Below, piece after piece: positions 19,109 through 56,367 of a stretch of DNA of 64,000 nt. The notes under the pieces are model-generated. The model did not search any database. It was not told the DNA's origin and saw only the letters and a list, made by a program, of their open reading frames with translations. A program made the position numbers and the translations under genes. Each line of letters starts with the position of its first letter. Positions within the stretch are counted from its first letter, which is position 1. The DNA comes from a virus. The DNA lies in the IMG/VR virus record IMGVR_UViG_3300025684_000010; one strand, 5' to 3'.

Positions 19109-19597
19109 TTATAGTTGTTCCATCGTAAAGGTATCGTATCTCCAGGTAACTGTCGTTGTTGCATATGCTACATCAGTAACATTAACATCAAGAGAAACAC
19201 CACCCAAAGAGGTTGGGAAGCAATTCTTAAATACGAATCTTATGTTTGGATTTTTGTGAGAGTTGGTAATGGTCGCAATGATATCGGACTCATGACCAGT
19301 TGCGGTGTATATTTTGTTTTGTTTCGAGGATTCTGGGGAAGCATAGCCTTCTATCCAATTGAGAATTTCTTTATAGTTATTCATATTCTCATCGAGGATC
19401 ATGGTAGTCGTCAACTCAGCGTACTCAATACGATCCCCGTATTCGTATATGTTTGCTAAAGGAGTACCTAACGTTGTAGGAGTTACAGTGACATCTGGAA
19501 TTTGCAGCTTCTGTGTAAAGAATTCTACATTAGGGAGTTTCTCTATACTAATCGTAAAATTAGTTGGAGATAAGTAATTGTTAATAATTTCTGGCAT
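19109..19597 (-). CDS. 3: Tail completion/sheath stabilizer gp3
   Basis: NYLSPTNF, PNVEFFTQ, YKEILNWI, VFKNCFPTSLG; AATAAATA late-like box upstream. Confidence 0.85.
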   Translation of the reverse strand: MPEIINNYLSPTNFTISIEKLPNVEFFTQKLQIPDVTVTPTTLGTPLANIYEYGDRIEYAELTTTMILDENMNNYKEILNWIEGYASPESSKQNKIYTATGHESDIIATITNSHKNPNIRFVFKNCFPTSLGGVSLDVNVTDVAYATTTVTWRYDTFTMEQL

Positions 19598-40657: not shown

Positions 40658-40665
40658 TATAAATA
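40658..40665 (+). promoter_or_regulatory. gp55 late promoter TATAAATA (also at 46816, 48643, 53385, 56843)
   Basis: Exact T4 late consensus, each shortly upstream of a gene start. Confidence 0.75.
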
Positions 40666-40695: not shown

Positions 40696-42123
40696 ATGAA
40701 GAGTTTCAATTCATATATAAAAGAAGCTAGTTTCTTAAAGCCTGACTACGTTATAGGACACAAAGTCGCTTTTAACGGAAAAGGCTTTAGGGAATTAGAT
40801 GCTTTAGGTTATAAACCCGGTGATCACTTTGAGATTATAGCACCAACCAAAGCTGACTATACTTATGGTGATGGTCCTGCAGAAAAGTATCTAAAAGCAC
40901 CAAACGGTAAAGTGATACATATGAAAGGAGCAACCGGTTTTAAATCGAGTTCCTTTACTCATGTTAAAGCTTCAGGTTCTCCACCAACAGGCGCGGAATG
41001 GGAAGATGTTATTGTTTACGCTTACAATAAACTCAACGGTAAATCAACAGACCCAGCAACAGTTGAAGTAGCAGAAAAGTTTAGTGACTATGCAGATGTT
41101 GCTAATAAAATCGCAACCAACTTCAATAACCAATTAAAAGCAAACCAGTTAGTGCAAACTGGTCGCGGCATGGGAGCTATTAGTTTAGGACCTATATGGA
41201 AAGAATCAGGTGCTAAGAACAAAACACCAAAGACTGATATTGCCTCCGCTGATTTCAAAGAAAAGATATCATTAAAGAAAGCAGGCGGATCTCAGCTTGC
41301 CTCACCAACCAAAGCAGAAGCTATCGCAATCGTTAAAGCAGCAATGTCGGAAATGGGCGAAGACAGAGCAATGGCAGCTAAACTTGTTAGTACAATGGAA
41401 ACTAATATGTCATCTCTAATATCGAGAGAGGCTGCTGGTGATTTGCGTAAACAATCAAAAGCTGGTGTAAAGACTGACGCAGTGATTGATTTTCAAGCAA
41501 AGGATAAAGGTAATAAAGAATTAACTAAAATGCTCGAAGGCCTTATTAATCAAGATACAGCAGTCAATGCTTTATTTAGTAAACATATTGTACTTGAGGC
41601 AGCAACCGGTAATCATAAGTTTGGTGGTGCAGGTTCTCCTGCCGCAGCTAACCTATTAGGTAAGTTCAGTCTAACAGGTGCTATTGAAGTTCAGCCTATC
41701 AATAGTATTAATGATCCTGTTATTGTTAAATATGCACAAACAGTCAAACCTGTCGTTTCATTTAAATCAGGTGGCGGGGGTGCTCCTGCCTATTCAGCAT
41801 TGCGTTTAGGTATTAAAGAATCAGAAACACTAAGAGGTATTGTGTTATCTGAAATGGAACAACTCGACGGTTTAATGTTAACCGAAGACTTTATTTCAGA
41901 AGGACCACTTGATATGTTAAAGAAAGCAGGTGATTGGGCAAAGGAAAAAGGTCAGGCGTTTGTAAATAAAGTTAAAGCCGCAGTTGCCAACGTTCTTGCT
42001 AAGATGAAAGCAATACTAACAAAGATCGCAAAGATGGGAAAGAAAATGTTTGCGAGTTTAATGAAGTTCTTCGGAGTAGAAGTAAGTTCAGCAACAGGCA
42101 TACCAGGAAATATTTCTTTATGA
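40696..42123 (+). CDS. Late protein with CTS-like leader and PD-(D/E)xK-like core
   Basis: MKSFNSYIKE leader; AEWE...TPKTDI...ISLKK.GGSQL motif. Confidence 0.55.
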   Translation: MKSFNSYIKEASFLKPDYVIGHKVAFNGKGFRELDALGYKPGDHFEIIAPTKADYTYGDGPAEKYLKAPNGKVIHMKGATGFKSSSFTHVKASGSPPTGAEWEDVIVYAYNKLNGKSTDPATVEVAEKFSDYADVANKIATNFNNQLKANQLVQTGRGMGAISLGPIWKESGAKNKTPKTDIASADFKEKISLKKAGGSQLASPTKAEAIAIVKAAMSEMGEDRAMAAKLVSTMETNMSSLISREAAGDLRKQSKAGVKTDAVIDFQAKDKGNKELTKMLEGLINQDTAVNALFSKHIVLEAATGNHKFGGAGSPAAANLLGKFSLTGAIEVQPINSINDPVIVKYAQTVKPVVSFKSGGGGAPAYSALRLGIKESETLRGIVLSEMEQLDGLMLTEDFISEGPLDMLKKAGDWAKEKGQAFVNKVKAAVANVLAKMKAILTKIAKMGKKMFASLMKFFGVEVSSATGIPGNISL

Positions 42124-42977
42124 AGGATTTTAAAACATTTGTTGACGAAGGTGCAAACGATCCTGCGATATTCAAAGCAATCTTTTTGGCAGGTGGCCCT
42201 GGCTCAGGTAAATCATATGTCGTTGGAAAAACTGCATTACCTATTCTTGGGTTCAAAGTTGTGAATTCAGATGATGCATTTGAAGCAGCAATGAATAAAG
42301 CTGGTTTAACAATGGATGCTGATACTATCTTTTCAACTCAAGGACAAGAGATTCGAGATAAAGCAAAGAAAGTAACAGACATGAGGATGACTGGTTATTT
42401 ACGTGGTCGTTTAGGATTAGTTATTGATGGAACAGGTAAGAACGCTGCTAAGATTCAAAAACAAGCAAAAGAGTTAAGAAGCTTGGGATATGATGTAGGG
42501 ATGATATATGTTAATACGGATTTAGATACTGCGATTGCTCGTAACGATGCAAGGCCAAGATCACTACCTATTCAACAAGTTACCGCATTATGGAAAGATG
42601 TTCAAAAGAACATTGGCGGATATCAGAAAATGTTTGGTCGTGACTTTATTATTATTGATAATTCAGAAGGCGCAAGTATCGAATCTAATATTACAGATGG
42701 TTATAAGTGGGCAACTAAATTTTCTAAGTCTGCTATTGAAAATCCTAAAGCAAAGAAATGGATTCAGTCTTACACAGAAGAATACCTGCCTGAAGCTGAT
42801 CTTGCTATGGCCTATGATGGCGTTATTGATTTAATACTTAAAGATCTTAAGAATAGGTTATCGCAAGATGTACGACGCAAAGACGTTAAGCTAGTTAACA
42901 ATATAGCAGGAATTGTAAAAAAGAAAGTAGAATTAGATTTTAAACATAAAGGTTACCTGAGGTTGAAAGACAAATGA
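42120..42977 (+). CDS. P-loop kinase (zeta-toxin/Pnk-kinase/AAA_33-like) with CTS-like leader
   Basis: GGPGSGKS, NSDD, VIDGT and lid motif ARNDAR. Confidence 0.75.
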   Translation: MKDFKTFVDEGANDPAIFKAIFLAGGPGSGKSYVVGKTALPILGFKVVNSDDAFEAAMNKAGLTMDADTIFSTQGQEIRDKAKKVTDMRMTGYLRGRLGLVIDGTGKNAAKIQKQAKELRSLGYDVGMIYVNTDLDTAIARNDARPRSLPIQQVTALWKDVQKNIGGYQKMFGRDFIIIDNSEGASIESNITDGYKWATKFSKSAIENPKAKKWIQSYTEEYLPEADLAMAYDGVIDLILKDLKNRLSQDVRRKDVKLVNNIAGIVKKKVELDFKHKGYLRLKDK

Positions 42978-44209
42978 AATCGTATAACCAATACCTTGCG
43001 GAAGCGGACGCAAACCTGCACATGACGCATCTTGAGGACGCTGTTCTCGATGGCGGTGTAAAAGGAACAAGAAACGTAATTAATTATATTCGTAATATTC
43101 GCGATATGCTATCAGGTAATACTAAGGCTCCTGTTAATATTACAACAAAGTGGGACGGAGCTCCTGCGATTTTTGCTGGTGTTGATCCTGCCGATGGTAA
43201 GTTCTTCGTAGCAAAGAAAGGAGTATTCAATAAAACTCCAAAGCTATATAAAACAGAAGCAGAAATAGATAATGATCTGAGCGGTGAACTCAATAGCAAA
43301 TTTAAAGTTGCTTTGAAAGAATTCGCTAAACTCGGAATAAGTGGAGTAGTACAAGGTGATTTCTTATATACGGATGACGATCTTAAAACGGAAGATATTG
43401 ATGGAGAATCGTGTGTTACTTTCCATCCTAATACCATTGTTTACGCGGTACCTAAAGCATCAGGACTCGGTAAGACAATTTCAGGATCAAAGATTGGTGT
43501 GGTCTGGCACACAACATACGCAGGATCAACTCTTGAAACAATGTCTGCAAGTTTTGGTATTGCGATCTCAACAAAACTTAACAAGGTTAAATCGGTCTGG
43601 CACGTAGACGCAACGTTTGAAGATAAGTCAGGTACAGCAACATTTACCGACGCAGAGAACAAAGCCCTAACTGCTCAGTTAAGTCAAGCAGGAGCATTGT
43701 TTAGAACAATAGATGCTAAGGTTCTAGGCGAACTCGGAACAAACGCAGATTTAAATCAAAAGGTAAATACTTTTATTAATACAAAGGTACGCGATGGTCA
43801 ACGTATTGGCGCGGTCAAACCTTTCGTTAAAGATTTACAAAAATACATACAAGAATATTATAAGAAAGAAGCAGATAAGCGTAAGACTCCTGCTGGCAAG
43901 AAAACTCAAATGGATAAAGCAACGTTAGCATTACAAATCTTTGCGGCTCCAGGTAATACGAAAAAACTCGAAGCTATATTTACTCTATATGATTTGATGG
44001 TCGATATGAAATATGTTATCATAGACAAATTAAATAAAGTTGGTGGTATTAAAACACTACTCAAAACAGCAAAAGGATTCGAAGTAACGGGTCAAGAAGG
44101 ATTTGTTGCGATTGACCATTATGGAAAGAATGCATTGAAGATTGTGGATCGTATGGGATTCAGTCTTGCTAACTTCTCAGATCAATATATCAAAGGTTGG
44201 CAGAAATAA
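42974..44209 (+). CDS. Ligase-like covalent nucleotidyltransferase (KxDG) with CTS-like leader
   Basis: TKWDGAPA (motif I), QGDFLY (III), EGFVA (IV), LKIV (V). Confidence 0.6.
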   Translation: MKSYNQYLAEADANLHMTHLEDAVLDGGVKGTRNVINYIRNIRDMLSGNTKAPVNITTKWDGAPAIFAGVDPADGKFFVAKKGVFNKTPKLYKTEAEIDNDLSGELNSKFKVALKEFAKLGISGVVQGDFLYTDDDLKTEDIDGESCVTFHPNTIVYAVPKASGLGKTISGSKIGVVWHTTYAGSTLETMSASFGIAISTKLNKVKSVWHVDATFEDKSGTATFTDAENKALTAQLSQAGALFRTIDAKVLGELGTNADLNQKVNTFINTKVRDGQRIGAVKPFVKDLQKYIQEYYKKEADKRKTPAGKKTQMDKATLALQIFAAPGNTKKLEAIFTLYDLMVDMKYVIIDKLNKVGGIKTLLKTAKGFEVTGQEGFVAIDHYGKNALKIVDRMGFSLANFSDQYIKGWQK

Positions 44210-44212
44210 GTA

Positions 44213-44241
44213 TTGACATTGCGTCTTAATTTTGTTATAAT
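44213..44241 (+). promoter_or_regulatory. Sigma70-consensus promoter heading the glycan cassette
   Basis: TTGACA-N17-TATAAT. Confidence 0.8.
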
Positions 44242-44274
44242 ATAACTTCTATAATATGAATAAGGTGATCCTTA

Positions 44275-44814
44275 ATGAAAGACGTGACAGTCATAAACTT
44301 CTACGGCGGACCAGGCTCAGGTAAATCTACCGCTGCGGCCGGTTTATTCTATCAAATGAAAATCGCAGGCTATAATGTCGAACTGACAGATGAGTTTGCT
44401 AAAGAGTGCGTATGGGAAGGTAACATACCAATGTTGGCAGATCAACTTTGGGTACTCGGTCATCAACACAGAAAAATATTACGATTATCCGATAAGGTAG
44501 ATTATATCATTACCGATAGTCCTGTACTCTTAAGTCCAATATATCGTGAACGTTACGGCAAGGCAATCTATTCAGATCTAATTGACCAAATGGCATTTGA
44601 ATGTTATAAGCTATATAATCACAATATCAATTTTATGTTAACAAGACCTGAAGGTTTTGACCAACAAGGTAGAGCACAGGATATAGATGAGTGTATTTTA
44701 ATTGATGAAGCAATCATGGAACAATTTGACCGACTTGATATTGGATATATAAATTTAGATTCTAACGACAACGCATCGGCTGCAATGAGATATATTAAGA
44801 GACTATGGACATAA
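44275..44814 (+). CDS. AAA_28/NadR-like P-loop kinase
   Basis: GGPGSGKST, EFAKE, ITDSPVL. Confidence 0.75.
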   Translation: MKDVTVINFYGGPGSGKSTAAAGLFYQMKIAGYNVELTDEFAKECVWEGNIPMLADQLWVLGHQHRKILRLSDKVDYIITDSPVLLSPIYRERYGKAIYSDLIDQMAFECYKLYNHNINFMLTRPEGFDQQGRAQDIDECILIDEAIMEQFDRLDIGYINLDSNDNASAAMRYIKRLWT

Positions 44815-45479
44815 GTATTGAAAAGAAGATGACCCACATTTGGATAGGACCTAATCCTGCTCCATTGAAGTGGATGAATACTTGGCCAGAGAAAATGCCT
44901 GACTGGGAGTATTCAGTATTCACAGACGATATGTTACATAAACGCAAATGGTATAACCAACATTTAATTGAAGAGTATTATAGACAAAAGTGTTGGGCAG
45001 GAGTTGCTGATTTAATTCGTTATGAGTTAATATACGAGAGAGGTGGCTTTTGGCCTGAAGCAGATTCAGAATGTTATCACGACGTTAGTGAACTATTCGT
45101 TGAAGATCCAAACTTAGCATATACTGTATTTGAAAAGGAAGATGTAATACCGAGATCTATATCTCCAATCATGGCAGCAAACCCAGGCAATAAATTCCTT
45201 GATGTTATATTGAGAAAACTCCATACATTAAGACCTGGTGATTTAGATCCAAAGCCACACGAATCAACAGGAAACTTCTTCTTAGCAAGATTACTTGATG
45301 GCACTCGTCACTTACTACATATCTTTCCTTCTTACACATTTATACCTCAATGGTTTCGTCCTGGGTATCCAAGGTATGATGGGCCAGGTAAAATATACGC
45401 AGAACAACATTGGGGTTCAACTGCAACTGATTTAGGTCTCCCAGACACAACAAAACAATATAATGAAGGCATAGAGTGA
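44805..45479 (+). CDS. GT32 (OCH1-like) glycosyltransferase
   Basis: HIWIG, ADLIRYELIYERGGFWPEADSEC, HWGST. Confidence 0.78.
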   Translation: MDISIEKKMTHIWIGPNPAPLKWMNTWPEKMPDWEYSVFTDDMLHKRKWYNQHLIEEYYRQKCWAGVADLIRYELIYERGGFWPEADSECYHDVSELFVEDPNLAYTVFEKEDVIPRSISPIMAANPGNKFLDVILRKLHTLRPGDLDPKPHESTGNFFLARLLDGTRHLLHIFPSYTFIPQWFRPGYPRYDGPGKIYAEQHWGSTATDLGLPDTTKQYNEGIE

Positions 45480-46144
45480 TTCACGTAGAAATATTAGGCT
45501 TAGGACATCCAAGGACAGGAACTGGTTATACAAGTAAAGTATTATCAGATTGGGGTTTCGATGTTGGCCATGAAGTAATGGGTAAGCAAGGTATTGTATC
45601 TTGGTTATTAGTTAAACCAAAAGGACCCTATTTGTGGCAGAAGGGATTTGATAGAAGACCAACATATGACCATTTAGTATATAATACACGAGACCCAAAA
45701 ACCTCTCTTGCTTCAATTGTATATACTGAAACACCACCCTGTGATAAAGATGGAACTAGTTGGTGTGGTACAAAGTATTACCAAAACTTCAACTATTCAA
45801 ATTTTGATTACGACTCGACATACTTTCGTAAACAATTTATTGGATTAAATAGTGACAACCCAATAGAAAACGCAATTGATAGTATATGTCAGTTCCATGA
45901 AATGATTCTACGCTGTCGCCCAAATGTACAATATAGAATTGAGAACGAAGAACAGAAATTATTTAATTACTTTAAATCTTTCTATCCAAGCATTGAATAT
46001 ATAGAACACCCAAATAAAGAAAACACTCGAAAGCATAAATCGTTTGAACAGATGGCAGAGGAATTTCCAACACCATCTAAACAACACATAGACAGAATTA
46101 ACCATTACGCAATGGCGTGTGGGTATGATAAGGTAGAATTTTGA
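45476..46144 (+). CDS. Sulfotransferase-like protein
   Basis: GHPRTGT (5'-PSB-like) and RDPKTSLAS (3'-PB-like). Confidence 0.65.
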   Translation: MIHVEILGLGHPRTGTGYTSKVLSDWGFDVGHEVMGKQGIVSWLLVKPKGPYLWQKGFDRRPTYDHLVYNTRDPKTSLASIVYTETPPCDKDGTSWCGTKYYQNFNYSNFDYDSTYFRKQFIGLNSDNPIENAIDSICQFHEMILRCRPNVQYRIENEEQKLFNYFKSFYPSIEYIEHPNKENTRKHKSFEQMAEEFPTPSKQHIDRINHYAMACGYDKVEF

Positions 46145-46824
46145 AAGCTTATATATTAACACATGACCATCCAACATCTCGAGAATACGCAAAGACTTGT
46201 TCTGATTCTTGCGATCTTGTTGGTTTAGATTGGGAGTACTTTGAAGGTTGGTCTCATTGTACTGGTCGTATGGCGTGGTGTGAAACCGGAATCAAAATGA
46301 AATTCCACGAACCTATGCTTTACGTTCCTGAACCAAACATGCATCACAAAGCAAACACATGTTCTGCAGGTCACGCTGCTATTTGGAAAAAGATCGCCGA
46401 AGGTGAAGATAACGTTGGTATTGTATTAGAACACGATGCTATTATGTATTATAAACCAGACATCAAAATACCGGATAACTATTTAATTACGTTAGGATAT
46501 AAATTATCAGAATTACGTTATGATTATAAAGAAGGTAATAAACAACCACGGAAATTGATTAATATAGATGGTCATGAAGGTGCCCATGCTTATATGATGA
46601 CAAAAAGAACAGCCCAAAACTTAATTCACGAAATAGAAGAGCAAGGTATATTAGGAGCAGTTGATAACGCATACTTTATTCGTGGACAGAGAAGAACCAA
46701 GATACCACTTGTGATTATGTCTCCAACCCCTGCTGTAGGATATTTAAGAGATTCTACGATATGGGATGAGTCAGCGCACGTTAACTACGAATTTATAGAC
46801 AGCTTCGCTAATTATTATAAATAA
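46141..46824 (+). CDS. GT25 (Lex1/LgtB-like) glycosyltransferase
   Basis: CSAGHAAIWKKI, VLEHDA, GAHAYMMTKRTA. Confidence 0.75.
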   Translation: MKAYILTHDHPTSREYAKTCSDSCDLVGLDWEYFEGWSHCTGRMAWCETGIKMKFHEPMLYVPEPNMHHKANTCSAGHAAIWKKIAEGEDNVGIVLEHDAIMYYKPDIKIPDNYLITLGYKLSELRYDYKEGNKQPRKLINIDGHEGAHAYMMTKRTAQNLIHEIEEQGILGAVDNAYFIRGQRRTKIPLVIMSPTPAVGYLRDSTIWDESAHVNYEFIDSFANYYK

Positions 46825-46859
46825 AAACATTAGCAAACTAAAAATTAGGAAATACTTAC

Positions 46860-48635
46860 ATGGATCGCTTAAACGAAGCAGATGATACATCGATTGCGGC
46901 TGGATCTGTAAAGGATTACACAGATACCGACAAAATAAAAGATTCTTCTAATAAAGATATCAAGAAGCGTAAAGATAAGAAAAAAGATCAAGACGAAAAC
47001 GATATCATTCAGAAAGATACCAAACGTACTTTTGATGCAACAAAGTATATTGATACTGAACCGCGCATTAACGAAGCTGTTACAGCAACAGCAGTTGCCA
47101 CATTTGGTCGTATGAATCCGCCAACAGTCGGTCATGAAAAATTAGTTAATGCGATTATCAAAAAAGCAATCTCGGTTAAAGGTACTCCATTAGTATACCT
47201 ATCAAAAACGCAAGATGCCAAAAAGAATCCATTATCGTATGATGATAAGATTAAGTTTGGTCAAGCTCTATTCGGTAAAAGGATGATTGTTAAATCAAAC
47301 GCAAAAACAATTATACAAGTTGCACAAGAATTACAAAAGAAAGGCTATAAGGATTTAGTTTTAGTTGTTGGTTCAGATAGAGTTAAAGAATTTGATACAT
47401 TGCTAAACAAATATAACGGTAAAGATTATACGTTTGATAGTATTGAAGTTGTTTCTGCTGGTGAACGTGATCCTGACTCTGATGGTGTTGATGGAATGTC
47501 AGCAAGCAAGATGAGAGCATTGGCAGCAGATGGTAATTTTGACGAATTCGTTAAAGGAATTCCAACAAGAAACGATAAAATAAGGTTAGACTTATATACA
47601 GCGGTTCGTGATGGATTGGGTATTAACGAACAAACCAATTTTGCGGTAAGTCAGTTTCTTGCAGAAAGAGTTAAGGCAGGTAAGGTTGATCCTTTATCAG
47701 CAATGGGTAAACAAAAACTAACAGGCGCTGAAGTTGCCAGTTATTATAAATCAAACCCAACTGCAAAATCTGCGGCTAATCGAGACAAGAATGTTAAATT
47801 AGCAATTGAACTTGCGTTGGATTTATCAGGTAATATGAATTACGCAGTTAAAGAAATTGATAAACTCAAACGCAATCTATCAAAACATCCTGAAGTTCAA
47901 AAGGCTTTAAGATCTGCAAATGAATCCTCCAACATTGACTTATATCGAGCAGCTTCTATTCAAGAAAGAATGCAGAAAGAAGCCGATAAAGAATCCAAAC
48001 AACAAAAACAACAACCTGGGTATTATAAAGATCTAGGTGGTTCTACTAAAGATAAACGTCAAGCACATTTCAATAAAAAGTCAAAGATGGACGACGACAA
48101 TCCTGATGCTTATGATAAGGCACCTGGTGATGCAGAAGCTAAAACAAAACCATCTAAGCATTCAAACAAGTTTAAGAAAATGTTTGGCGAAGCAGTAGAT
48201 CGTAATATGGAACGTGCAGGTTTAAAAAGACCACATCAACTATTAAGACAAGACAACACTGTTAACTTCGATTATAGATTCAAGATGTATCGTTCTGCCA
48301 AAGAAGCAGAAGCATTAGAGAAACAACGAGCAGTGATTGAATCAGAGATTACAGACCAAAGAATAGACGAGTTAGAACAGTTGATTGAACAAGTAGAATT
48401 CGTATCAGAAAAATCAAACCCTGAAAAATCATTAAAGGATAAAGCTGAGAAATCAGGAATGCCTTATGGTATATTAAAGAAAGTATTTGATAGAGGTGTT
48501 GCTGCTTGGAGAACAGGCCATCGTCCTGGTACAACTCCAGTACAATGGGGATTGGCAAGAGTAAATAGTTTTGCTACAAAATCACCAGGTACATGGGGTA
48601 AAGCTGATAAAGATTTGGCCGACAAAGTTAAATAA
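46860..48635 (+). CDS. T4-like cytidylyltransferase-domain virion protein with C-terminal DUF5824-like module
   Basis: FGRMNPPTVGHEKL, VVGSDRV, MSASKMR; tail KAEKSGMPYGILKKVFDRGVAAWRTGHRPG. Confidence 0.75.
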   Translation: MDRLNEADDTSIAAGSVKDYTDTDKIKDSSNKDIKKRKDKKKDQDENDIIQKDTKRTFDATKYIDTEPRINEAVTATAVATFGRMNPPTVGHEKLVNAIIKKAISVKGTPLVYLSKTQDAKKNPLSYDDKIKFGQALFGKRMIVKSNAKTIIQVAQELQKKGYKDLVLVVGSDRVKEFDTLLNKYNGKDYTFDSIEVVSAGERDPDSDGVDGMSASKMRALAADGNFDEFVKGIPTRNDKIRLDLYTAVRDGLGINEQTNFAVSQFLAERVKAGKVDPLSAMGKQKLTGAEVASYYKSNPTAKSAANRDKNVKLAIELALDLSGNMNYAVKEIDKLKRNLSKHPEVQKALRSANESSNIDLYRAASIQERMQKEADKESKQQKQQPGYYKDLGGSTKDKRQAHFNKKSKMDDDNPDAYDKAPGDAEAKTKPSKHSNKFKKMFGEAVDRNMERAGLKRPHQLLRQDNTVNFDYRFKMYRSAKEAEALEKQRAVIESEITDQRIDELEQLIEQVEFVSEKSNPEKSLKDKAEKSGMPYGILKKVFDRGVAAWRTGHRPGTTPVQWGLARVNSFATKSPGTWGKADKDLADKVK

Positions 48636-48793
48636 TGGATCGTATAAATAATATTAAAGAAGCCGGCGGAGCTGGTGATTGGGGAACCGATAAAGCTCGA
48701 GCAAGACTTCAAAAAGATACGCCTGGTCAAGAGATCGCGCGCAAAAAGAAATTAAAAACTTTTAAAGAATTTAAGGACCAGGAAACCAAATGA
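48635..48793 (+). CDS. 52-aa protein with GAGDWGT...KDTPGQ motif
   Basis: Manual translation; coupled at both ends (TAATG, ATGA). Confidence 0.6.
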   Translation: MDRINNIKEAGGAGDWGTDKARARLQKDTPGQEIARKKKLKTFKEFKDQETK

Positions 48794-51284
48794 AAAATTT
48801 TAGACAAGTATTGGAAGGCGTTGATGTAATCAGCGAGAACCTTTCTAAATCATCAAAGGAGTTGGCAAAAGAAATTGATACTGCTGCCAAGAAAGAATCA
48901 GGTGCAGATAAGGCAGATTATCAAACTGTTGCTAAACTTATATCCCAAAACAAACTTGACGACGCTAAAAAGATTATTGCTAAATTAGACACCGTCGTAC
49001 TTGAAGATTTGATTACCTTTATAATGGGCCATGAGGATGTATTCAAAGCAATGTATCCTAGAGCTCGTCCTGGTCAATACGCCGCTTCATTCGCAAGAAA
49101 GGAAAGTGTTGAGGAAGGTAAATTACCACCTGCTCTTCAAGCCTATCAAGATAAGAAGAATGGCAAGAAGCCTCAGGATGATGTTGAAGAAGCAATGTCA
49201 CCAGCTGATAAGGCAAAACGTCTTAAGATGATTAGGCAAGCTGTTGAAAAGATGAATAAGTCTAATATGGAAAGAGCAAAGAAAGATGCTCTCAAGATGA
49301 TGAAAGATTCTGGTATGTTTGACGAAGAACTTGAAGAAGCCGCACCTAAAATGAAGAAGCTTGGTTTCTACGGATCTGAGATCGGTGGTCTTAGACAAGG
49401 CAACAAATATTATTCAGCAAAACCTGTAGAAGTTCAAGGTAAAGTTGGATTCAGAGTAACCGATGAGTTTGGTGGTTTTGAAACAATTGATCTCAAAACA
49501 TTTGCGAAGAGATTCGGATAATGTCAAAATTATTTGAAGCAATGGCCGAGATCAAGTTAACTACTGAAAACATTCAGAAAGTTATTAAAATGTTTCCAAG
49601 AGATAACGATTGGAAGAACCTGATAACCAAACATCGTAGAGATATTGATGCTCTTCGAAGAGGTAAAGATTTACCAAAGAAAGTCGAAGACGAACTAATG
49701 CAATGGGCATTGGACAACGGCGAAATCAAAACTGACGACGTCGAAGAATTAGAAGATTTCATTGATAGTATTATGAATGAAGGTACCGATAAACAGATTG
49801 CTGAAGGTTTACCAAATCAAAAACAATTAGAAAAAGATATCATGGACTTTATGAAAGATGGTCGTTCTGATGGTATTACTGGTTTGATGGGTGTCTCTAA
49901 AAGTTTAGAACAGAAATATAAAGTTGGTCCTGCAGTCGCAAGAACAGCAGTTAAAAAATTATTAAGTGATATCGTCAACGGAACATACAAAGGTTAATTA
50001 TGTTATCTTATAACCAATTCGTCACTGAAAAGTGCTGGGACGGATACAAACAAGTTGGAATGAAAAAGAAGAACGGCAAAGACGTTCCAAATTGTGTACC
50101 CGAATCCAAGGAGTTGGAAGAATTGACTACTTCACAGTTAATTAAGAAGTTAGCAGCTGATACGATATTCAAAAAGAAATACGGCCAAGCGGTCGCCAAA
50201 GTAAAAGAAATCATGTTTAAACATGGTGACAAACCTCGACATGGTAAAGAATATTACGCAGGCAAGATTGCGAATCAGTTTGGTCTTGATCCTCACGTCC
50301 TTGCTATAATGATTGATGAACAGTTATCAGAAGGTTCAGAATCATGGGATGACGGATATAAACGCCGAGTTGTTAAAACAACAAAACCAGAACACAAAGA
50401 ACAAGGTTATAATTGGCGCATCAAAGGCAAAGATAAAGATAACCTATCAATCAAACTATATAAAACTAAACCAGATCAAGCAGAATTTGAAAAACAAATG
50501 AAGCGGGTCGCTGGACATGAATTCGGAGGATAAAATGTCAAAGGAATTAACAAGGCAAGAAAGATTAGATGCAGAGATCAAAAAAAGTCTTGATGCAAGA
50601 ACAAAAGAATTTAAAGAAAAAATCCAAAAGCTAACTTATGAAAAAATTAAGCAAGCTTTAGTGCCTTCAAAGGAACCATTAAAAGGTTATCCGCATAACG
50701 AAAGTATGCTCGAGGCTTCCGATCCTTGGCAGGATGATATAGATTACCTTAGCAAATTAGATAAGACTGATCCTAAAAAGGCAGCAGCGTTTAGAAAAAG
50801 AACTAAAGCACTTAAGAAGGGCGGTGGCTGGAATTTAGCAGGAAAGCCAACTCCTGAACAAAAGAAGATTATGCAACAAATGGATAGGGATGCCAAGAAA
50901 AAGCACCCCAATTTATATAGAGAAGAAGTTACTATTTCAATAGACGAATCCGTTAACGAAGCTCTTAAAGCTGGTAAAGGAAAAGGACTTGCTGATATTG
51001 ATTACGTAGGTGATAGAAAGTTAACTCAGAAAATCGAAAAGATGTTCAACATTAAGATCAAGCAGACAGGTAATACTACTGCTGATGTTACTGGAGAAAA
51101 GAAAGATATTTTAAACTTTTTACAGAAACATTACTATTACGATAATTTAGACGTTATGGAGCTACATCCTGAGATCGTTGAAGATATTGAAGAAGTAAAA
51201 GTTCCTGCTAACTATGCTGCTATGATGGCCAAGAAAAAGGCTGCTGCTGCAAAGGCTGCTGCTGCAGATAAGCGTAAAAAATAG
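48790..51284 (+). other. Four K/E-rich late proteins (48790-49521, 49521-49997, 50000-50533, 50517-51284), probable internal head proteins
   Basis: CTS-like starts, repeated (L/V)xE|A/G segments, and a CWDGY...VPNCVP module in the 50000 ORF. Confidence 0.6.
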
Positions 51285-51313
51285 TTGACATTTAGTCACA
51301 GAGTTGATATAAT
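51285..51313 (+). promoter_or_regulatory. Sigma70-consensus promoter
   Basis: TTGACA-N17-TATAAT just before the RimK-like gene. Confidence 0.75.
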
Positions 51314-51319
51314 AATATA

Positions 51320-52768
51320 ATGAAAACCATATCTGAATACAGAATATCCCCGCTCGAAGAGGAAGCAGAAATTGTTCCTTATAACGAGCTGCATATTGTT
51401 GTATTAGGTACAGGAGATGGTGACGGTACTTTTGCTGATATTGTTGAAGAAGTTTCTGTTAAGAGAGATATTAAATACGATTTCGTTGATATAACAAAAT
51501 CGTGGATTGCTGACTCTGATATTGACATCGGAACTGTAAAGCTTCGTAATGTTGATGGCAAAGATAAAGATATTGAGATTGAAACACATAACTCAATTGT
51601 ATTTGTAAGAGCAGGAGCAATCGGTACGCTTTCCTCTCAAGCGTTTGTATCCTCTTTACAAGATATTGGCTTTTTGCTTGTTAACGATTTAGAATCTATG
51701 TTAGTCTGTGATAACAAAATGTCCAACGCATTATTGTTAGGTCGTAACAATATACCGATTCCAAGAACATCATCTATACCCAACGAACAATCTATCGAAG
51801 ACGCTCATAAACGAGTAGGTGGAAAGTTCCCTGTTATTATTAAAACACTTAAAGGAACTCAAGGTGTTGGTGTAATGAAGATTGATAGTATGTCATCTTT
51901 AACAGGTGTATGTCAATCGTTATGGAAATACGATGCTGATTTGTTAATACAAGAATTCTTTGAAATGAAATCAGATGTACGTACTCTACTTGTAGGTGGT
52001 AAGATCATTGCTGCGGCAGAAAGAATACGAGCACCAGATAACAAAGACTTTAGAAACAATGTTCACCAAGGTGCAACAACAGAACCATACGATTTATCAA
52101 AGAAAGAGATCGCAGTAATTAAAGCAGCCGCAAGAGCAACAGGCGCAGTTTATTGTGGTGTAGATCATTTCGTTGACGATAAAGGCAATCCTTATATTAT
52201 CGAAGTAAACGGTTCTCCAGGAATTCGTTCTCACTTTGAAGGATACGATCCTTGGACAGAAGAAAAGACAGGTAAGATTTCTGATAAAGAAGTAGTTGAG
52301 CTCGTTATACAATTCTTTTCTAAAGATGTTAATAGGCGACCAATCTTTAGACAAGAAGCGGGATATCTTGAGACGATTATATTTACGGGAATGGAAAAGA
52401 ATCCTGTTCGTGCAAAGTTTGACACAGGTAACAGTGCAAAGGCAAGTATGTTACATGTTGATTCCATGGATGTTAAAAATGGAAAAGTTACTTGGACAAA
52501 GAACGGATATAAGTTCGAAGATAAATTATTGTATATCTCAAAACCAATGAGAGGTCAAAAACCATTTGATGAAAGACCTGTAATAGAACATGAGATACAC
52601 TTTAACAACAAAACTTATATTGCTGAAATTGCGTTATCAGTGAAAGATACTGCATCAGAAATGTTAGTGAATAGAAAGTTAATGACTAAGTTTAAAATTG
52701 CGGTGAATCCTAACAGACGATTCATACTGTCAAACAAAACAGAAAGAAACGACAAATCGGATCACTAA
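51320..52768 (+). CDS. RimK-like ATP-grasp ligase fused to a DTG aspartic-type (RimB/Zn_protease-family) protease
   Basis: NKMSN...IPIPRT, FPVIIKTLKGTQGVGV, IQEF, DVR, FRNNVHQG, GVD, EVNGSPG; C-terminal AKFDTGN. Confidence 0.82.
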   Translation: MKTISEYRISPLEEEAEIVPYNELHIVVLGTGDGDGTFADIVEEVSVKRDIKYDFVDITKSWIADSDIDIGTVKLRNVDGKDKDIEIETHNSIVFVRAGAIGTLSSQAFVSSLQDIGFLLVNDLESMLVCDNKMSNALLLGRNNIPIPRTSSIPNEQSIEDAHKRVGGKFPVIIKTLKGTQGVGVMKIDSMSSLTGVCQSLWKYDADLLIQEFFEMKSDVRTLLVGGKIIAAAERIRAPDNKDFRNNVHQGATTEPYDLSKKEIAVIKAAARATGAVYCGVDHFVDDKGNPYIIEVNGSPGIRSHFEGYDPWTEEKTGKISDKEVVELVIQFFSKDVNRRPIFRQEAGYLETIIFTGMEKNPVRAKFDTGNSAKASMLHVDSMDVKNGKVTWTKNGYKFEDKLLYISKPMRGQKPFDERPVIEHEIHFNNKTYIAEIALSVKDTASEMLVNRKLMTKFKIAVNPNRRFILSNKTERNDKSDH

Positions 52769-53139
52769 TGAAAAAATTTACAGAGTGGAAACATGAAGGT
52801 TTCGGATTATATGAAGGAGTTACTGTTCCTTTAGAAAGTCCTATGATTGAATTAGAAGAAGAACCAGAATTGAATTCACCTAAACGGTCAAGTGGAGATA
52901 AGAAGTATGTTGTCTATGTTAGAAACCCTGACACAGGTAATATCAAAAAGATTGAGTTCGGTGATGAGAAAGGCGGACTTACAGCTAAGATTAATGACAG
53001 AGAAGCCGCTAAGAATTTCGCAAGTCGACACAATTGCGATACTAAAACAGATAAAATGTCTGCAGGATACTGGGCCTGTAGATTACCTAAATATGCAAAA
53101 GGTCTTGGCCTCAAGGGAGGTGGTAGTTATTTCTGGTAA
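52768..53139 (+). CDS. Conserved T4-like late protein (VYV.NP...KIEFGD...FASRHNC...AGYWAC)
   Basis: CTS-like leader MKKFTEWKHE. Confidence 0.65.
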   Translation: MKKFTEWKHEGFGLYEGVTVPLESPMIELEEEPELNSPKRSSGDKKYVVYVRNPDTGNIKKIEFGDEKGGLTAKINDREAAKNFASRHNCDTKTDKMSAGYWACRLPKYAKGLGLKGGGSYFW

Positions 53140-53389
53140 ACCATATACGGATCTTGATGATATTCGTACATTTGATATTAATGAAGATCAGTCGGAGTTT
53201 GTTTGGCACAGAGATAAAGAAGACCGTTTAGTTGAAGTAATATCAGGAAATGGTTGGCAATTTCAACCAGAAAATTGTTTACCATTGTTATTACAACCAG
53301 GGATAAAGTTTAAGATCAAAGAAGGTGAATACCATCGTTTGATTAAAGGTATTGATAATTTACAGATTCGGATAACGAAACTGTTATAA
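53120..53389 (+). CDS. Small cupin-fold protein
   Basis: WHRDKEDR...YHRLIKG; start uncertain. Confidence 0.55.
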   Translation: MVVISGKPYTDLDDIRTFDINEDQSEFVWHRDKEDRLVEVISGNGWQFQPENCLPLLLQPGIKFKIKEGEYHRLIKGIDNLQIRITKLL

Positions 53390-53439
53390 ATAAACATAGA
53401 ACATATAAATTAGCTTAAAAAGTTTTAAGGGAGAAAGAA

Positions 53440-54343
53440 ATGAGTTGGAAAGAAATTATCGAGAGTAAAATTGACACTAAGATGTCAGCTGCTATTCAAA
53501 AGAAAATTGGAGTGGTTAGTGAAAGAACTGTTGAAGAAGAAAACGAATATCAGAAATTCTTTCAAAAGGCGCTTAAAAAGTTTGGAATCGAATCACCAGC
53601 AGAGCTAGAAGACGACGCAGCGAAGAAGAAATTCTTTGATTACGTTGATGCAAACTGGAAAGGAGATGACGAAAAGGCAGAGGGTACTGAAGCTCAGGAT
53701 TCTATCAAGCCTTCAAAGAAAAAGGATTTGGCTGCTAGCAATTGCGGCGGTTAATCCATTATATTATAGGAGTAAATTATGTTTTTGATTGAATGGATTA
53801 AAGGCTTATTTTCTAAAGACGAAGTCACTCCTGCTAAAGTAGACCCAGTGAAGGAGCCAAAGAAGGCTGCTACTGCAAAAGGTCCTCAAGTTACTAAAGC
53901 TGCGTTAGGTAAACTAACAAAAGCTGGACTTGAAGAAGCTGGTCGTAAAGCAGGTATTGAACTCGATAAAAGAAAAAAGAAAGCCGATTTAGTTAATGAA
54001 CTTTATAAAGTTTTAAAATAATAAAAATAAAATTAGGAGAATAACAATGGCACTATGGGGAAAAACAGACGCGGCAGCAAGCGTACCAAAGTGGCTCGAA
54101 ACCGCAGCAGGAAATACTAATAAGTCTAATGATGAAGACAACGCAGTCTTTGTTGACTTAACAGAAGCAGGTGTCGCAGCAAACAGAGCCAAAGGTCTTA
54201 CCGGTCCAGGTTGGTGGTTGTATCATACAGCAGGTGGAAGACACCACGCTGAGTGTTTAGTACCAATGAAAGTTACAGCAGTTGCTGCTGGTGACTTAGG
54301 TGTTGATGGTACAGGTGACGATGCAGTTGTAGCTGACGCTTAA
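53440..54343 (+). other. Three small late ORFs (53440-53754, 53779-54021 with HeH-like C-terminus, 54047-54343 MALWG-type virion protein)
   Basis: Downstream of the late promoter at 53385; good RBSs. Confidence 0.6.
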
Positions 54344-54367
54344 TCTAAAAACATTGCCTTTATTGTT

Positions 54368-54742
54368 ATGAATTTGACTGAATCAACCTTTCTGCTATAC
54401 GCGATGAAACACTATGACAACCCTCAGTGTACTGAGATGTCAGAGTTCGAAGAGGATATTAAGAGATTTCAATATCTCCGTAAACTCTTTAGTCGATATA
54501 GACAAGATGGAGATCTGAAGGAAAGGTTAATTCTAAACCATCTCATTGTTATATTCAATGTGTTTGGTCCGCAGGCAACAAATATGTTATTCATGAGATT
54601 ACATGAGTATCACGAATATTTAAAACCATTCGTACTATATTTGAATTATATGCCAGAACTGTTAGTATACGATGATATGGCGGTAAACGCAGACTCCATT
54701 AATGGTGATCTGTTTATCGAAACAAGGCTTAGGGAAATTTAA
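54368..54742 (+). CDS. Conserved T4-like hypothetical protein
   Basis: YAMKHYDNPQC...ERLILNHLI..FNVFG. Confidence 0.7.
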   Translation: MNLTESTFLLYAMKHYDNPQCTEMSEFEEDIKRFQYLRKLFSRYRQDGDLKERLILNHLIVIFNVFGPQATNMLFMRLHEYHEYLKPFVLYLNYMPELLVYDDMAVNADSINGDLFIETRLREI

Positions 54743-55501
54743 ATGGTAGTAGATTTATTCTTAGTGTACTCATTTATCAAAAGGCTAGTTATGCCCTTTG
54801 AAAAGTGGGAGGCATATAAGGAAGGAATTATTGATGAGAAGGGAAATCTCCTAATCAAACGTAAAGACTTCGTAAAGAATAGTCAGAAATCTGCGTTTGG
54901 TATTTTTGACCAAATGATATTGAATCTGAAGAAACTATTAGGTAAACTTCCTGGTGGGCAAACTAAACTTGCGTCTTACGCTTCAGCCTTATGGTTGATA
55001 CGTGAACAGCAAAGAATCGAAGCTACTAACTATTTAACAGAGGAATCTGTTGAAGAAGATTTAGAAATTGCGCTAGAAAGGTTTCTATCTGAAAACGAAA
55101 CGTTAATTGCTGAAGCAGCAAAACGCGAGATTGACGAAGAACCTGCTAATGCAGTCGGTGGTGGTAACATTGCCGGTTTAGGAATAGGACCTGATGGCGA
55201 ACCAGGTGTTTCTAAAAAGAATCAAAAGAAACATAAGAAACGTATTCGAGATATTATGGGTACGGTCAAAATGGAAGATGCGGTTGCTGCAGCTAATCTT
55301 AAAGCAAGACAGGCAGGCGAACTTGATACTATGAAAGATCGTCAAGATAAAGATAAAGAAAGAATTAAATTAAAACATGCTGCTGAAGTCGAAAGACAGA
55401 AGACTCAAGACGAAGTCGAAAAGGAGCGTGAGAAACGTAAACAAGAACGTGATAAAGAACGTGCAGCCGCTAAACAATCAATGGGATCTTCTGCAGGTTA
55501 A
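54743..55501 (+). CDS. Conserved T4-like late protein with charged tail
   Basis: DLFLVYSFIKRL..PFEKWEAYKEGIIDEKG. Confidence 0.7.
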   Translation: MVVDLFLVYSFIKRLVMPFEKWEAYKEGIIDEKGNLLIKRKDFVKNSQKSAFGIFDQMILNLKKLLGKLPGGQTKLASYASALWLIREQQRIEATNYLTEESVEEDLEIALERFLSENETLIAEAAKREIDEEPANAVGGGNIAGLGIGPDGEPGVSKKNQKKHKKRIRDIMGTVKMEDAVAAANLKARQAGELDTMKDRQDKDKERIKLKHAAEVERQKTQDEVEKEREKRKQERDKERAAAKQSMGSSAG

Positions 55502-55516
55502 CAAAGGAAAACAAAA

Positions 55517-56367
55517 ATGAAATCGTTTAACCAATACTCATCTGAACAAGAACAACTAGAAGAAGGCAAAGTTTCAATTGCCAAACTAAAAGTTGGCCTA
55601 GCTATGACTCCTATGTGGACAGGTCGTAGTGCAAAAAACTACGGTATCGCAGGACAGGCTGTTTATGACGGAAAAGTAAAGGTTCTAGGAATGGGAATTG
55701 TACCTTTTGGTAAAAAAGCAGAAAAGAGACATATAATCGCAAAAGATTACAAAGACGCTCAAACCAAGTATAATGATGTTTGGAATACAGAAGAAATTAA
55801 ATATGGTCGTTTTTGGAATGCTCAACACCGTATGAAAACTTTCTTTGGCAAAATTGCAGATTCTGATAAGAAAATTGAAAACGGTTTCGTATGTTGGATT
55901 TGGGAAGTAGTAGACGGACCATCTAAAGGTACAGTACATTATTGCTTTATTGACTCTGATGAGAAATGGGCAATTAGTTATTTAAATAAATCTGCTGAAT
56001 TTGAAATGATTACCTAATGCCTACATACGATAAGCAATTAGAATTAGTTGAAGTATTAAAAATTGATACGGATAACACCGTTAAGAAAGTTACCATAAGC
56101 GTTAAAACTTATGATGAAGCCGTTGGAACTTCTGTATTTTCTAAACAGCCTATGATTGCTGTATTGAGTGCAGAAGATTATGCTAATAGCTCAGTAACAA
56201 AAGTTACAACAGCAAACACCGCGGTTGATATTACATTATGGGGATATGCATATGCAGGTGGTGATAATTACTATGCAAATAATATTCAGGGTTACGCAGA
56301 GAGTCAAGTTGAGTCCTTATTACAGTTTCAAGGAACAACTTCAGTAGATATATCTACGTTATCATAG
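55517..56367 (+). other. Two hypothetical late ORFs (55517-56017 with CTS-like leader; 56017-56367)
   Basis: ORF track; MKSFNQYSSE leader. Confidence 0.55.

Follow-up and report, generated by a model that had tools for sequence, protein, structure and literature searches.

A candidate T4-type capsid targeting sequence on six unrelated proteins of an uncultured T4-like phage

The window analyzed here is the whole 64,000 nucleotide (nt) stretch taken from IMG/VR virus record IMGVR_UViG_3300025684_000010. Between its genes for gp41 and gp61 lies a block in which six genes, all on the + strand, begin with a similar ten-residue leader (decapeptide). This leader is of the same class as the capsid targeting sequence (CTS) of phage T4 and marks virion proteins in cultured relatives, and these two findings together make it very likely that the six window proteins are packaged in the capsid. 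The probable explanation is that the decapeptide serves as a T4-type CTS on at least six unrelated, late-expressed proteins, and that it is cut by a gp21-type prohead protease. The six tagged genes, with product lengths in amino acids (aa), are as follows.

40696..42123, + strand, leader 40696-40725: tagged gene 1, 475 aa, with a predicted SH3/FeoA-like barrel and a predicted MspI/HinP1I-like fold
42120..42977, + strand, leader 42120-42149: tagged gene 2, 285 aa, P-loop kinase
42974..44209, + strand, leader 42974-43003: tagged gene 3, 411 aa, DUF6267 (PF19782)
50000..50533, + strand, leader 50000-50029: tagged gene 4, 177 aa, with a conserved C-W-x-G-Y-K module after the leader
52768..53139, + strand, leader 52768-52797: tagged gene 5, 123 aa, with Lys at leader position 8
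55517..56017, + strand, leader 55517-55546: tagged gene 6, 166 aa, no family found

A preliminary description of this DNA, made from the letters alone, had reported six decapeptide N-termini, and all six were recovered on the + strand at the leader coordinates listed above. The strict pattern M-[KL]-x-[FY]-x-x-[FYW]-x-x-E was scanned over the 2,352 ATGs in the six frames of the window and matched six of them (40696, 42120, 42974, 50000, 52768 and 55517). The matches all fall on the first ATGs of long open reading frames (ORFs) on the + strand, between 40.7 and 55.5 kb, and there were no matches elsewhere in the window or on the - strand. From composition, 0.01-0.025 matches would be expected among the 102 ORFs, or 0.22 among all ATGs, giving a P value for six matches of between 1e-15 and 1e-7. 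The pattern was defined post hoc; positions 4, 7, 8 and 10, however, are those predicted by the work on T4. All six are real genes, with leader-bearing orthologues in related contigs, and the aromatic residues at positions 4 and 7 are present in all of them and retained in the orthologues. The tagged gene 6 orthologue of an 88%-identical relative keeps both aromatics and Glu10 while the rest of its leader has changed, the tagged gene 5 orthologues of two relatives (G002 and G004) retain the aromatic at position 4 and Glu10, and the linker of tagged gene 4 differs in length among relatives. The codons for Ser, Phe, Tyr and Asn vary synonymously among the leaders and the DNA upstream of them is unalike, so the likeness has been selected in the protein and not copied as DNA.

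The leader also behaves as a portable module in other viruses. Among 79 related viral contigs, gathered around DUF6267 orthologues, the strict pattern occurs in 68 of 1,094 ORFs, and when these proteins were clustered with their first 14 residues removed, it was found on separate families (DUF6267, the 475 aa protein, the kinase, small proteins and others). Within families, positions 2, 3, 5, 6 and 9 drift, positions 4, 7 and 10 stay, and the conserved domain starts straight after Glu10. Two positions that were not selected for are also constrained: of the 36 unique leaders, 34 have I, L, V or M at position 8 (background 0.23) and 28 have A, G or S at position 11 (background 0.20). In longer leaders, the two aromatics lie farther from the L-x-E↓A triplet (arrow, cut position), and both elements are retained. 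This two-part behaviour agrees with the division of labor mapped in the T4 tag, where residues 4 and 7 are required for targeting and residues 8 and 10 for processing (PMC9026906).

A position score matrix was trained only on leaders from uncultured contigs, T4 being left out. In the window, it gave the six genes 16-28 bits, with the next ATG at about 0. Among the 9,075 candidate starts of T4, the top two were ipIII and ipII (16.9 bits), and third was a 54-codon ORF near gene 61 (primase), on the - strand of NC_000866 with its start at 19130 (14.5 bits); this ORF aligns to residues 57-93 of gp23. In HTVC008M and contig G003, only weak or single leaders were detected, which indicates that expansion of the leader is lineage-specific and not universal. 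A leader profile over relatives was among the checks suggested in the preliminary description, and the matrix recovers not only T4 ipIII and ipII but also virion proteins of the cyanophages S-CREM2 and S-SM1.

For S-CREM2, the four best of 11,094 candidate starts were the annotated starts of ORF154 (cytidylyltransferase), ORF14 (APH/ChoK-like kinase), ORF6 (S-adenosylmethionine (SAM) hydrolase) and ORF13, and the next score was 2.9. All four are included in the 52 of 221 ORFs detected in S-CREM2 virions (PMC10665884 Table 3), an outcome with a chance probability of about 0.003, and three of them are 'non-structural' enzymes for whose presence the authors offer no explanation (PMC10665884). The virion proteins ORF12 and ORF15 have shifted leader-like segments, and six neighbours undetected in virions have none. 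In ORF12 (L134 4205-6814), a virion-detected 'Cas9-like' protein, F-x-x-F-M-x-E↓A is found at residues 17-26 and not at the annotated start; either this start was mis-called or the propeptide is longer. For S-SM1, the sole strong match among 12,054 starts was the cytidylyltransferase T4-GC190, found in virions with 25 counts (PMC3037559 Table S8). All five strong matches in these two phages are virion proteins, and together with the recovery of ipII and ipIII this supports the earlier proposal of a capsid-targeting-like tag that marks packaged proteins. The closest homologues of the cyanophage cytidylyltransferase begin with the leader in 119 of 120 cases. In Syn9 and S-PM2, the cytidylyltransferase next to DUF6267 carries the leader, and cytidylyltransferase is detected in S-SM1. 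The DUF6267 proteins themselves are without a leader in Syn9 (gp183, L111 8772-9734) and S-PM2 (p141, L112 6026-6604, where the gene is split across two frames), and most cyanophage DUF6267 matches start at query residue 14; the cluster of these two proteins is absent from the portion of the virion table considered here. A targeting sequence is not mentioned in the cyanophage proteome literature on S-SM1, S-SCSM1 and S-CREM2 (PMC3037559, PMC9602691, PMC10665884), nor are such tags in Petrov 2010, and a literature search whose coverage excluded the Weigele 2007 Syn9 and the KVP40 genome papers gave no link between 'capsid targeting' and cyanophages or marine T4-like phages.

The second half of the leader matches sites at which head proteins of T4 and of relatives are matured. 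In T4, gp23 is cleaved behind Glu65 (F-L-T-E↓A), and the stretch that aligns with it in Melnitz, Syn9, HTVC008M and G003 reads [F/L/I]-L-x-E and then A, T or I; leader positions 7-11 correspond to this gp23 maturation site of the relatives. The gp21 homologues of Melnitz, HTVC008M and G003 have N-terminal [Y/L]-I-x-E↓A segments. A Peptidase_S77 (PF03420) is encoded by Melnitz, HTVC008M, G003, S-CREM2 and S-SM1, and gp22 adjoins gp21 in Melnitz, HTVC008M, G003 and Syn9. In the window, 9 of the 21 block genes have [ILVM]-x-E-[AGS] among their first 13 residues, compared with 0 of 49 other genes (P 4.5e-6), and the block N-termini with this motif resemble those of T4 gp22 and gp67. The near-variants noted earlier at 48790 and 53440 do exist; they lack the second aromatic and have an N-proximal [ILVM]-x-E-[AGS] site. 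The predicted mature products of the six tagged genes have isoelectric points (pI) of 8.5-9.5; for the 49 proteins encoded outside the block the median is 5.6 (P 2e-5), and only 8% of them reach a pI of at least 8.5. Basic proteins are what would be expected among packaged DNA.

In the mechanism that we propose, the aromatics at positions 4 and 7 would dock each protein on the scaffolding core during prohead assembly, and [I/L/V]-x-Glu at positions 8-10 would be the cut site for the gp21-type prohead protease. Cutting would release the basic mature protein within the head, amid the DNA. Neighbouring proteins would use propeptides of other lengths, shorter or longer, that have this cut site too, and the cargo would be ejected with the DNA to act early in the host. 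A site of the [L/I]-x-Glu type (I, V or L at position 8 and Glu10) is present in 40696, 42120, 42974 and 50000, and cleavage after Glu10 is likely for these four proteins and uncertain for the other two. The analogy with T4 makes it plausible that the proteins are injected and act on the host early; the anti-defence role put forward in the preliminary description is a hypothesis.

Several points weigh against this interpretation. The leaders of 52768 (Lys) and 55517 (Ser) have no aliphatic residue at position 8, only Glu10, and these two proteins may be targeted but poorly cut. In S-CREM2 virions, ORF154 was detected by 3 peptides and ORF13 by 1, with contamination allowed for by the authors themselves (PMC10665884); the older Syn9 and S-PM2 proteomes missed the tagged cytidylyltransferase. 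The phage is known from sequence alone, and its gp21, gp22 and gp23 fall outside the window (gp23 was also not found in the records of the nearest relatives, G001 of 36 kb and G002 of 89 kb). Cleavage at Glu10 in marine phages is a prediction, and cargo of 30-49 kDa would need to unfold to exit via the tail.

Three of the proteins had been described beforehand as a kinase, a ligase-like enzyme and a nuclease-like enzyme. The last description fits the 475 aa protein, for which an MspI/HinP1I-like fold is predicted. Its AlphaFold model (predicted local distance difference test (pLDDT) score 79) has a disordered leader, an SH3/FeoA-like barrel, a nuclease-like core and C-terminal amphipathic helices, and the predicted mature form is 49 kDa with a pI of 9.4. 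When compared with MspI/HinP1I (VIA-align), the modelled core (residues 87-374) gave Z 9.7 (202 residues, root-mean-square deviation 4.4) and Z 9.4 (178 residues, deviation 3.8); the next structural match had Z 5.3, and the Foldseek E was 2.4e-3. Residues D181, S192, K195, E301 and K308 are invariant. Neither this protein nor that of 55517 has a match in PHROGs or Pfam, and in the ESM Atlas only virus-only unnamed clusters were found for the 475 aa protein and nothing for the 166 aa protein.

The kinase assignment of the 285 aa protein was borne out by Pfam matches above the gathering scores, to Zeta_toxin (PF06414, 36.3 bits, cut-off 22.3) and AAA_33 (PF13671, 36.7 bits, cut-off 27); it has a Walker A motif, G-P-G-S-G-K-S, and a weak polynucleotide-kinase PHROG. 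The 411 aa protein matches DUF6267 over residues 14-402 (E 2e-104, 350 bits, above the gathering score). The label 'ligase-like' is not confirmed. It relies only on K-W-D-G, which is invariant in 20 DUF6267 orthologues; PDB profiles gave no match, and hhalign, run against T4 DNA ligase alone among the T4 ligases, gave a probability of 0.8%. The AlphaFold model of the DUF6267 protein (pLDDT 56) was too poor for a structure search; in both this model and that of the 475 aa protein, residues 1-17/18 are of low confidence and lie ahead of the folded part. NCBIfam returned nothing useful for the cargo, and the proteins of 50000, 52768 and 55517 (177, 123 and 166 aa) could not be placed in a known family.

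The window carries a T4-type replication gene set (gp43, gp46/47, UvsX, gp41, gp61 and NrdA) and has a G+C content of 34-40%. No matches were returned when the 15-kb region was compared by Megablast with 50,697 phage records. In its protein matches the window falls with the Kyanoviridae and with relatives of that family that infect heterotrophs; the matches are to Methylophilales phage Melnitz, Stenotrophomonas DLP_6, pelagiphage HTVC008M and cyanomyoviruses. Melnitz, HTVC008M, Syn9 and S-PM2 share with the window the gene order UvsX, gp41, block, gp61, NrdA, and S-CREM2 keeps part of it. Clusters of S-layer-domain and head proteins from this syntenic block have been detected in S-SM1 and S-PM2 virions. 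The remaining features of the block are listed below.

40658..40665, + strand: late-promoter-like box TATAAATA, 30 nt 5' of the first tagged gene, at the head of a translationally coupled trio (40696-44209)
46860..48635, + strand: cytidylyltransferase-like and DUF5824 protein, no decapeptide
48790..49521, + strand: near-variant, 243 aa, Lys/Glu-rich, with an aromatic at position 4 and V-L-E↓G at 7-10
51320-52768: RimK-type ATP-grasp fused to a PF05618 protease-like domain
53440..53754, + strand: near-variant, 104 aa, with one aromatic and I-I-E↓S at 6-9, behind TATAAATA at 53385
54047..54343, + strand: untagged homologue of the cyanophage 'head protein' (Syn9 gp188 type, phrog_613)

The homologue of the Syn9 gp188 'head protein' at 54047 indicates that the block encodes virion proteins; the gene at 54368, also untagged, is a homologue of Syn9 gp189. 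The protein of 46860 has a Lys/Asp-rich N-terminal extension of 72 residues (46860-47075), ending in an [IL]-x-E↓A site that is conserved in all close relatives; more distant relatives and cyanophages have a short leader in its place, and the extension may be an alternative, longer propeptide that replaced the short leader. Four internal motifs resembling cut sites are present in the 48790 near-variant. The Lys/Glu-rich stretch 46860-51284 has 1.08 [ILVM]-x-E-[AGS] sites per 100 residues compared with 0.37 elsewhere, and its proteins look like components of the scaffold or core, or else like chains that the protease cuts. Four untagged genes (44275-46824) separate DUF6267 from the cytidylyltransferase; they encode an AAA_28 P-loop protein, a glycosyltransferase with a DXD sugar-binding motif, an unknown protein and a GT25-like glycosyltransferase, and Melnitz and HTVC008M have no counterpart of them at that position. 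The RimK-like protein of Melnitz (L001 82-1131) has a TTG start and a leader shifted by one residue, and may also be head-targeted. A 165-codon GTG ORF at 52892-53389 was rejected as an over-extension of a small downstream gene. It overlaps 52768-53139 in another frame, and conservation is limited to its final ~85 codons, which in relatives form a separate small gene beginning at the stop of 52768.

The box TATAAATA is not enriched window-wide (8 observed, 7.9 expected). Between 40 and 57 kb, the + strand has five of the eight (40658, 46816, 48643, 53385 and 56843) where about one is expected (P 0.004), and four of these five are in gaps or gene ends shortly upstream of a gene start, with that at 48643 just inside a small ORF (48635). 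This placement is consistent with late transcription, although as evidence it is weak alone. The earlier statement that most of the tagged genes lie downstream of such boxes stands at the operon level only.

A tag that loads the prohead need not imply an injected kit. Most of the cargo could work in the prohead itself, as scaffold or core, as counter-ions of the DNA or as enzymes acting on packaged DNA, and then be degraded or retained. The Lys/Glu-rich proteins of 46860-51284, with their threefold density of cut sites, are like T4 core proteins gp22, gp67 and gp68 (whose N-termini end in L-I-x-E), and all of the tagged products are basic. The CTS cargo of T4 (IPs and CTS fusions), however, does reach the host (PMC9026906), and neither the kinase, the restriction endonuclease-fold enzyme nor the SAM hydrolase of S-CREM2 has an obvious role in the capsid; we regard a role confined to the prohead as unlikely.

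There is little to recommend the view that the N-terminus serves translation initiation, regulation or another phage enzyme, such as the RimK/RimB-like neighbour, with a merely convergent likeness to T4. Lys2 and A-rich early codons are often seen in genes that are translated well, and the block does encode a RimK-type ATP-grasp with a protease domain, but the codons vary synonymously, the DNA upstream shows no relatedness, conservation falls on just the positions that were mapped in T4, and ipII and ipIII are recovered. In addition, all strong matches in the two phages with characterized proteomes are virion proteins, and the leaders of S-CREM2 and S-SM1 lie far from any RimK gene. That the leaders are a functionless by-product of recent 5'-end exchange between neighbours, by mobile promoter or leader cassettes, is scarcely credible: the tagged genes are clustered, as such exchange would have it, but there is no similarity at the DNA level in or upstream of the leaders, and the pattern is kept in orthologues down to ~50% identity and in cyanophages while the free positions drift. 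A tag for a modifying enzyme of the radical-SAM type was set aside, as no such enzyme lies nearby and in view of the virion evidence.

The CTS interpretation relies on a mechanism that is already known; what is new, against the literature found, is the lineage, the set of cargo families and the connection with the puzzle of cyanophage virion enzymes. Four cyanophage papers report NMNAT-like enzymes, kinases or SAM hydrolase in virions, and two of them cannot separate cargo from contamination. A T4-type tag on those enzymes would provide both a mechanism and a sequence-based predictor, and would make the cargo question testable on existing mass-spectrometry data. It would also extend CTS-directed packaging, a laboratory tool in T4, to the most abundant marine myoviruses and indicate new classes of delivered enzymes, a restriction-nuclease fold among them. 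A tentative extension, which we judge rather less than even in its chances, is that a simple ten-residue code used across the Kyanoviridae, which dominate among marine T4-like phages, sets which proteins ride in the capsid, so that the injected proteome could be read from sequence; the kit of the window phage would then include a pre-loaded restriction-type nuclease able to cut unmodified host DNA on entry, a kinase and two nucleotidyl-transferase-like enzymes. If this were true, the injected set would differ sharply by lineage, with one enzyme in most cyanophages, at least four proteins in S-CREM2 and at least six here.

The CTS of T4 IPII and IPIII was reportedly described by Mullaney and Black in 1996. 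It is alike in being a ten-residue N-terminal tag with aromatics at 4 and 7, Glu10 and an aliphatic residue at position 8 (PMC9026906, PMC3012670), which four of the six window leaders have, and in marking otherwise unrelated basic proteins, encoded in T4 near the lysozyme gene. The cargo differs, being mostly large enzymes (30-49 kDa) here and small DNA-binding proteins in T4; the lineage is marine and Kyanoviridae-like, the genes lie between gp41 and gp61, the mature parts are unrelated in sequence, and cleavage and injection are inferred. Closer in kind of cargo is the T4 ADP-ribosyltransferase (ART) Alt, a non-structural enzyme that is loaded into the head, trimmed by gp21 and delivered with the DNA (PMC9026906; PMC9503650), although its propeptides are unlike the decapeptide and no ART domain was found in the window. 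The ejection proteins of phiKZ and SPN3US are likewise cut after Glu, at small-x-Glu, and need their propeptides for incorporation into the head (PMC5694885); these propeptides, however, are mostly longer than 100 residues, the motif is A/S-x-E and the protease belongs to another family branch (PMC5694885). The modelled core of the 475 aa protein shares its fold with the type IIP enzymes MspI and HinP1I (PDB 1sa3, 1ynm), from which it differs in having 11-14% identity, an added SH3-like N-domain and helical tail, and no methyltransferase partner seen. Finally, the non-structural proteins of cyanophage virions (NMNAT-like cytidylyltransferase, kinases and SAM hydrolase) include a cytidylyltransferase from the same syntenic block, and the virion enzymes of S-CREM2 (PMC10665884) and S-SM1 (PMC3037559) carry the same leader as the window proteins. 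The cyanophage papers report detection only, leaving undecided whether these enzymes are packaged or contaminants, and the window phage tags more proteins, of different families.

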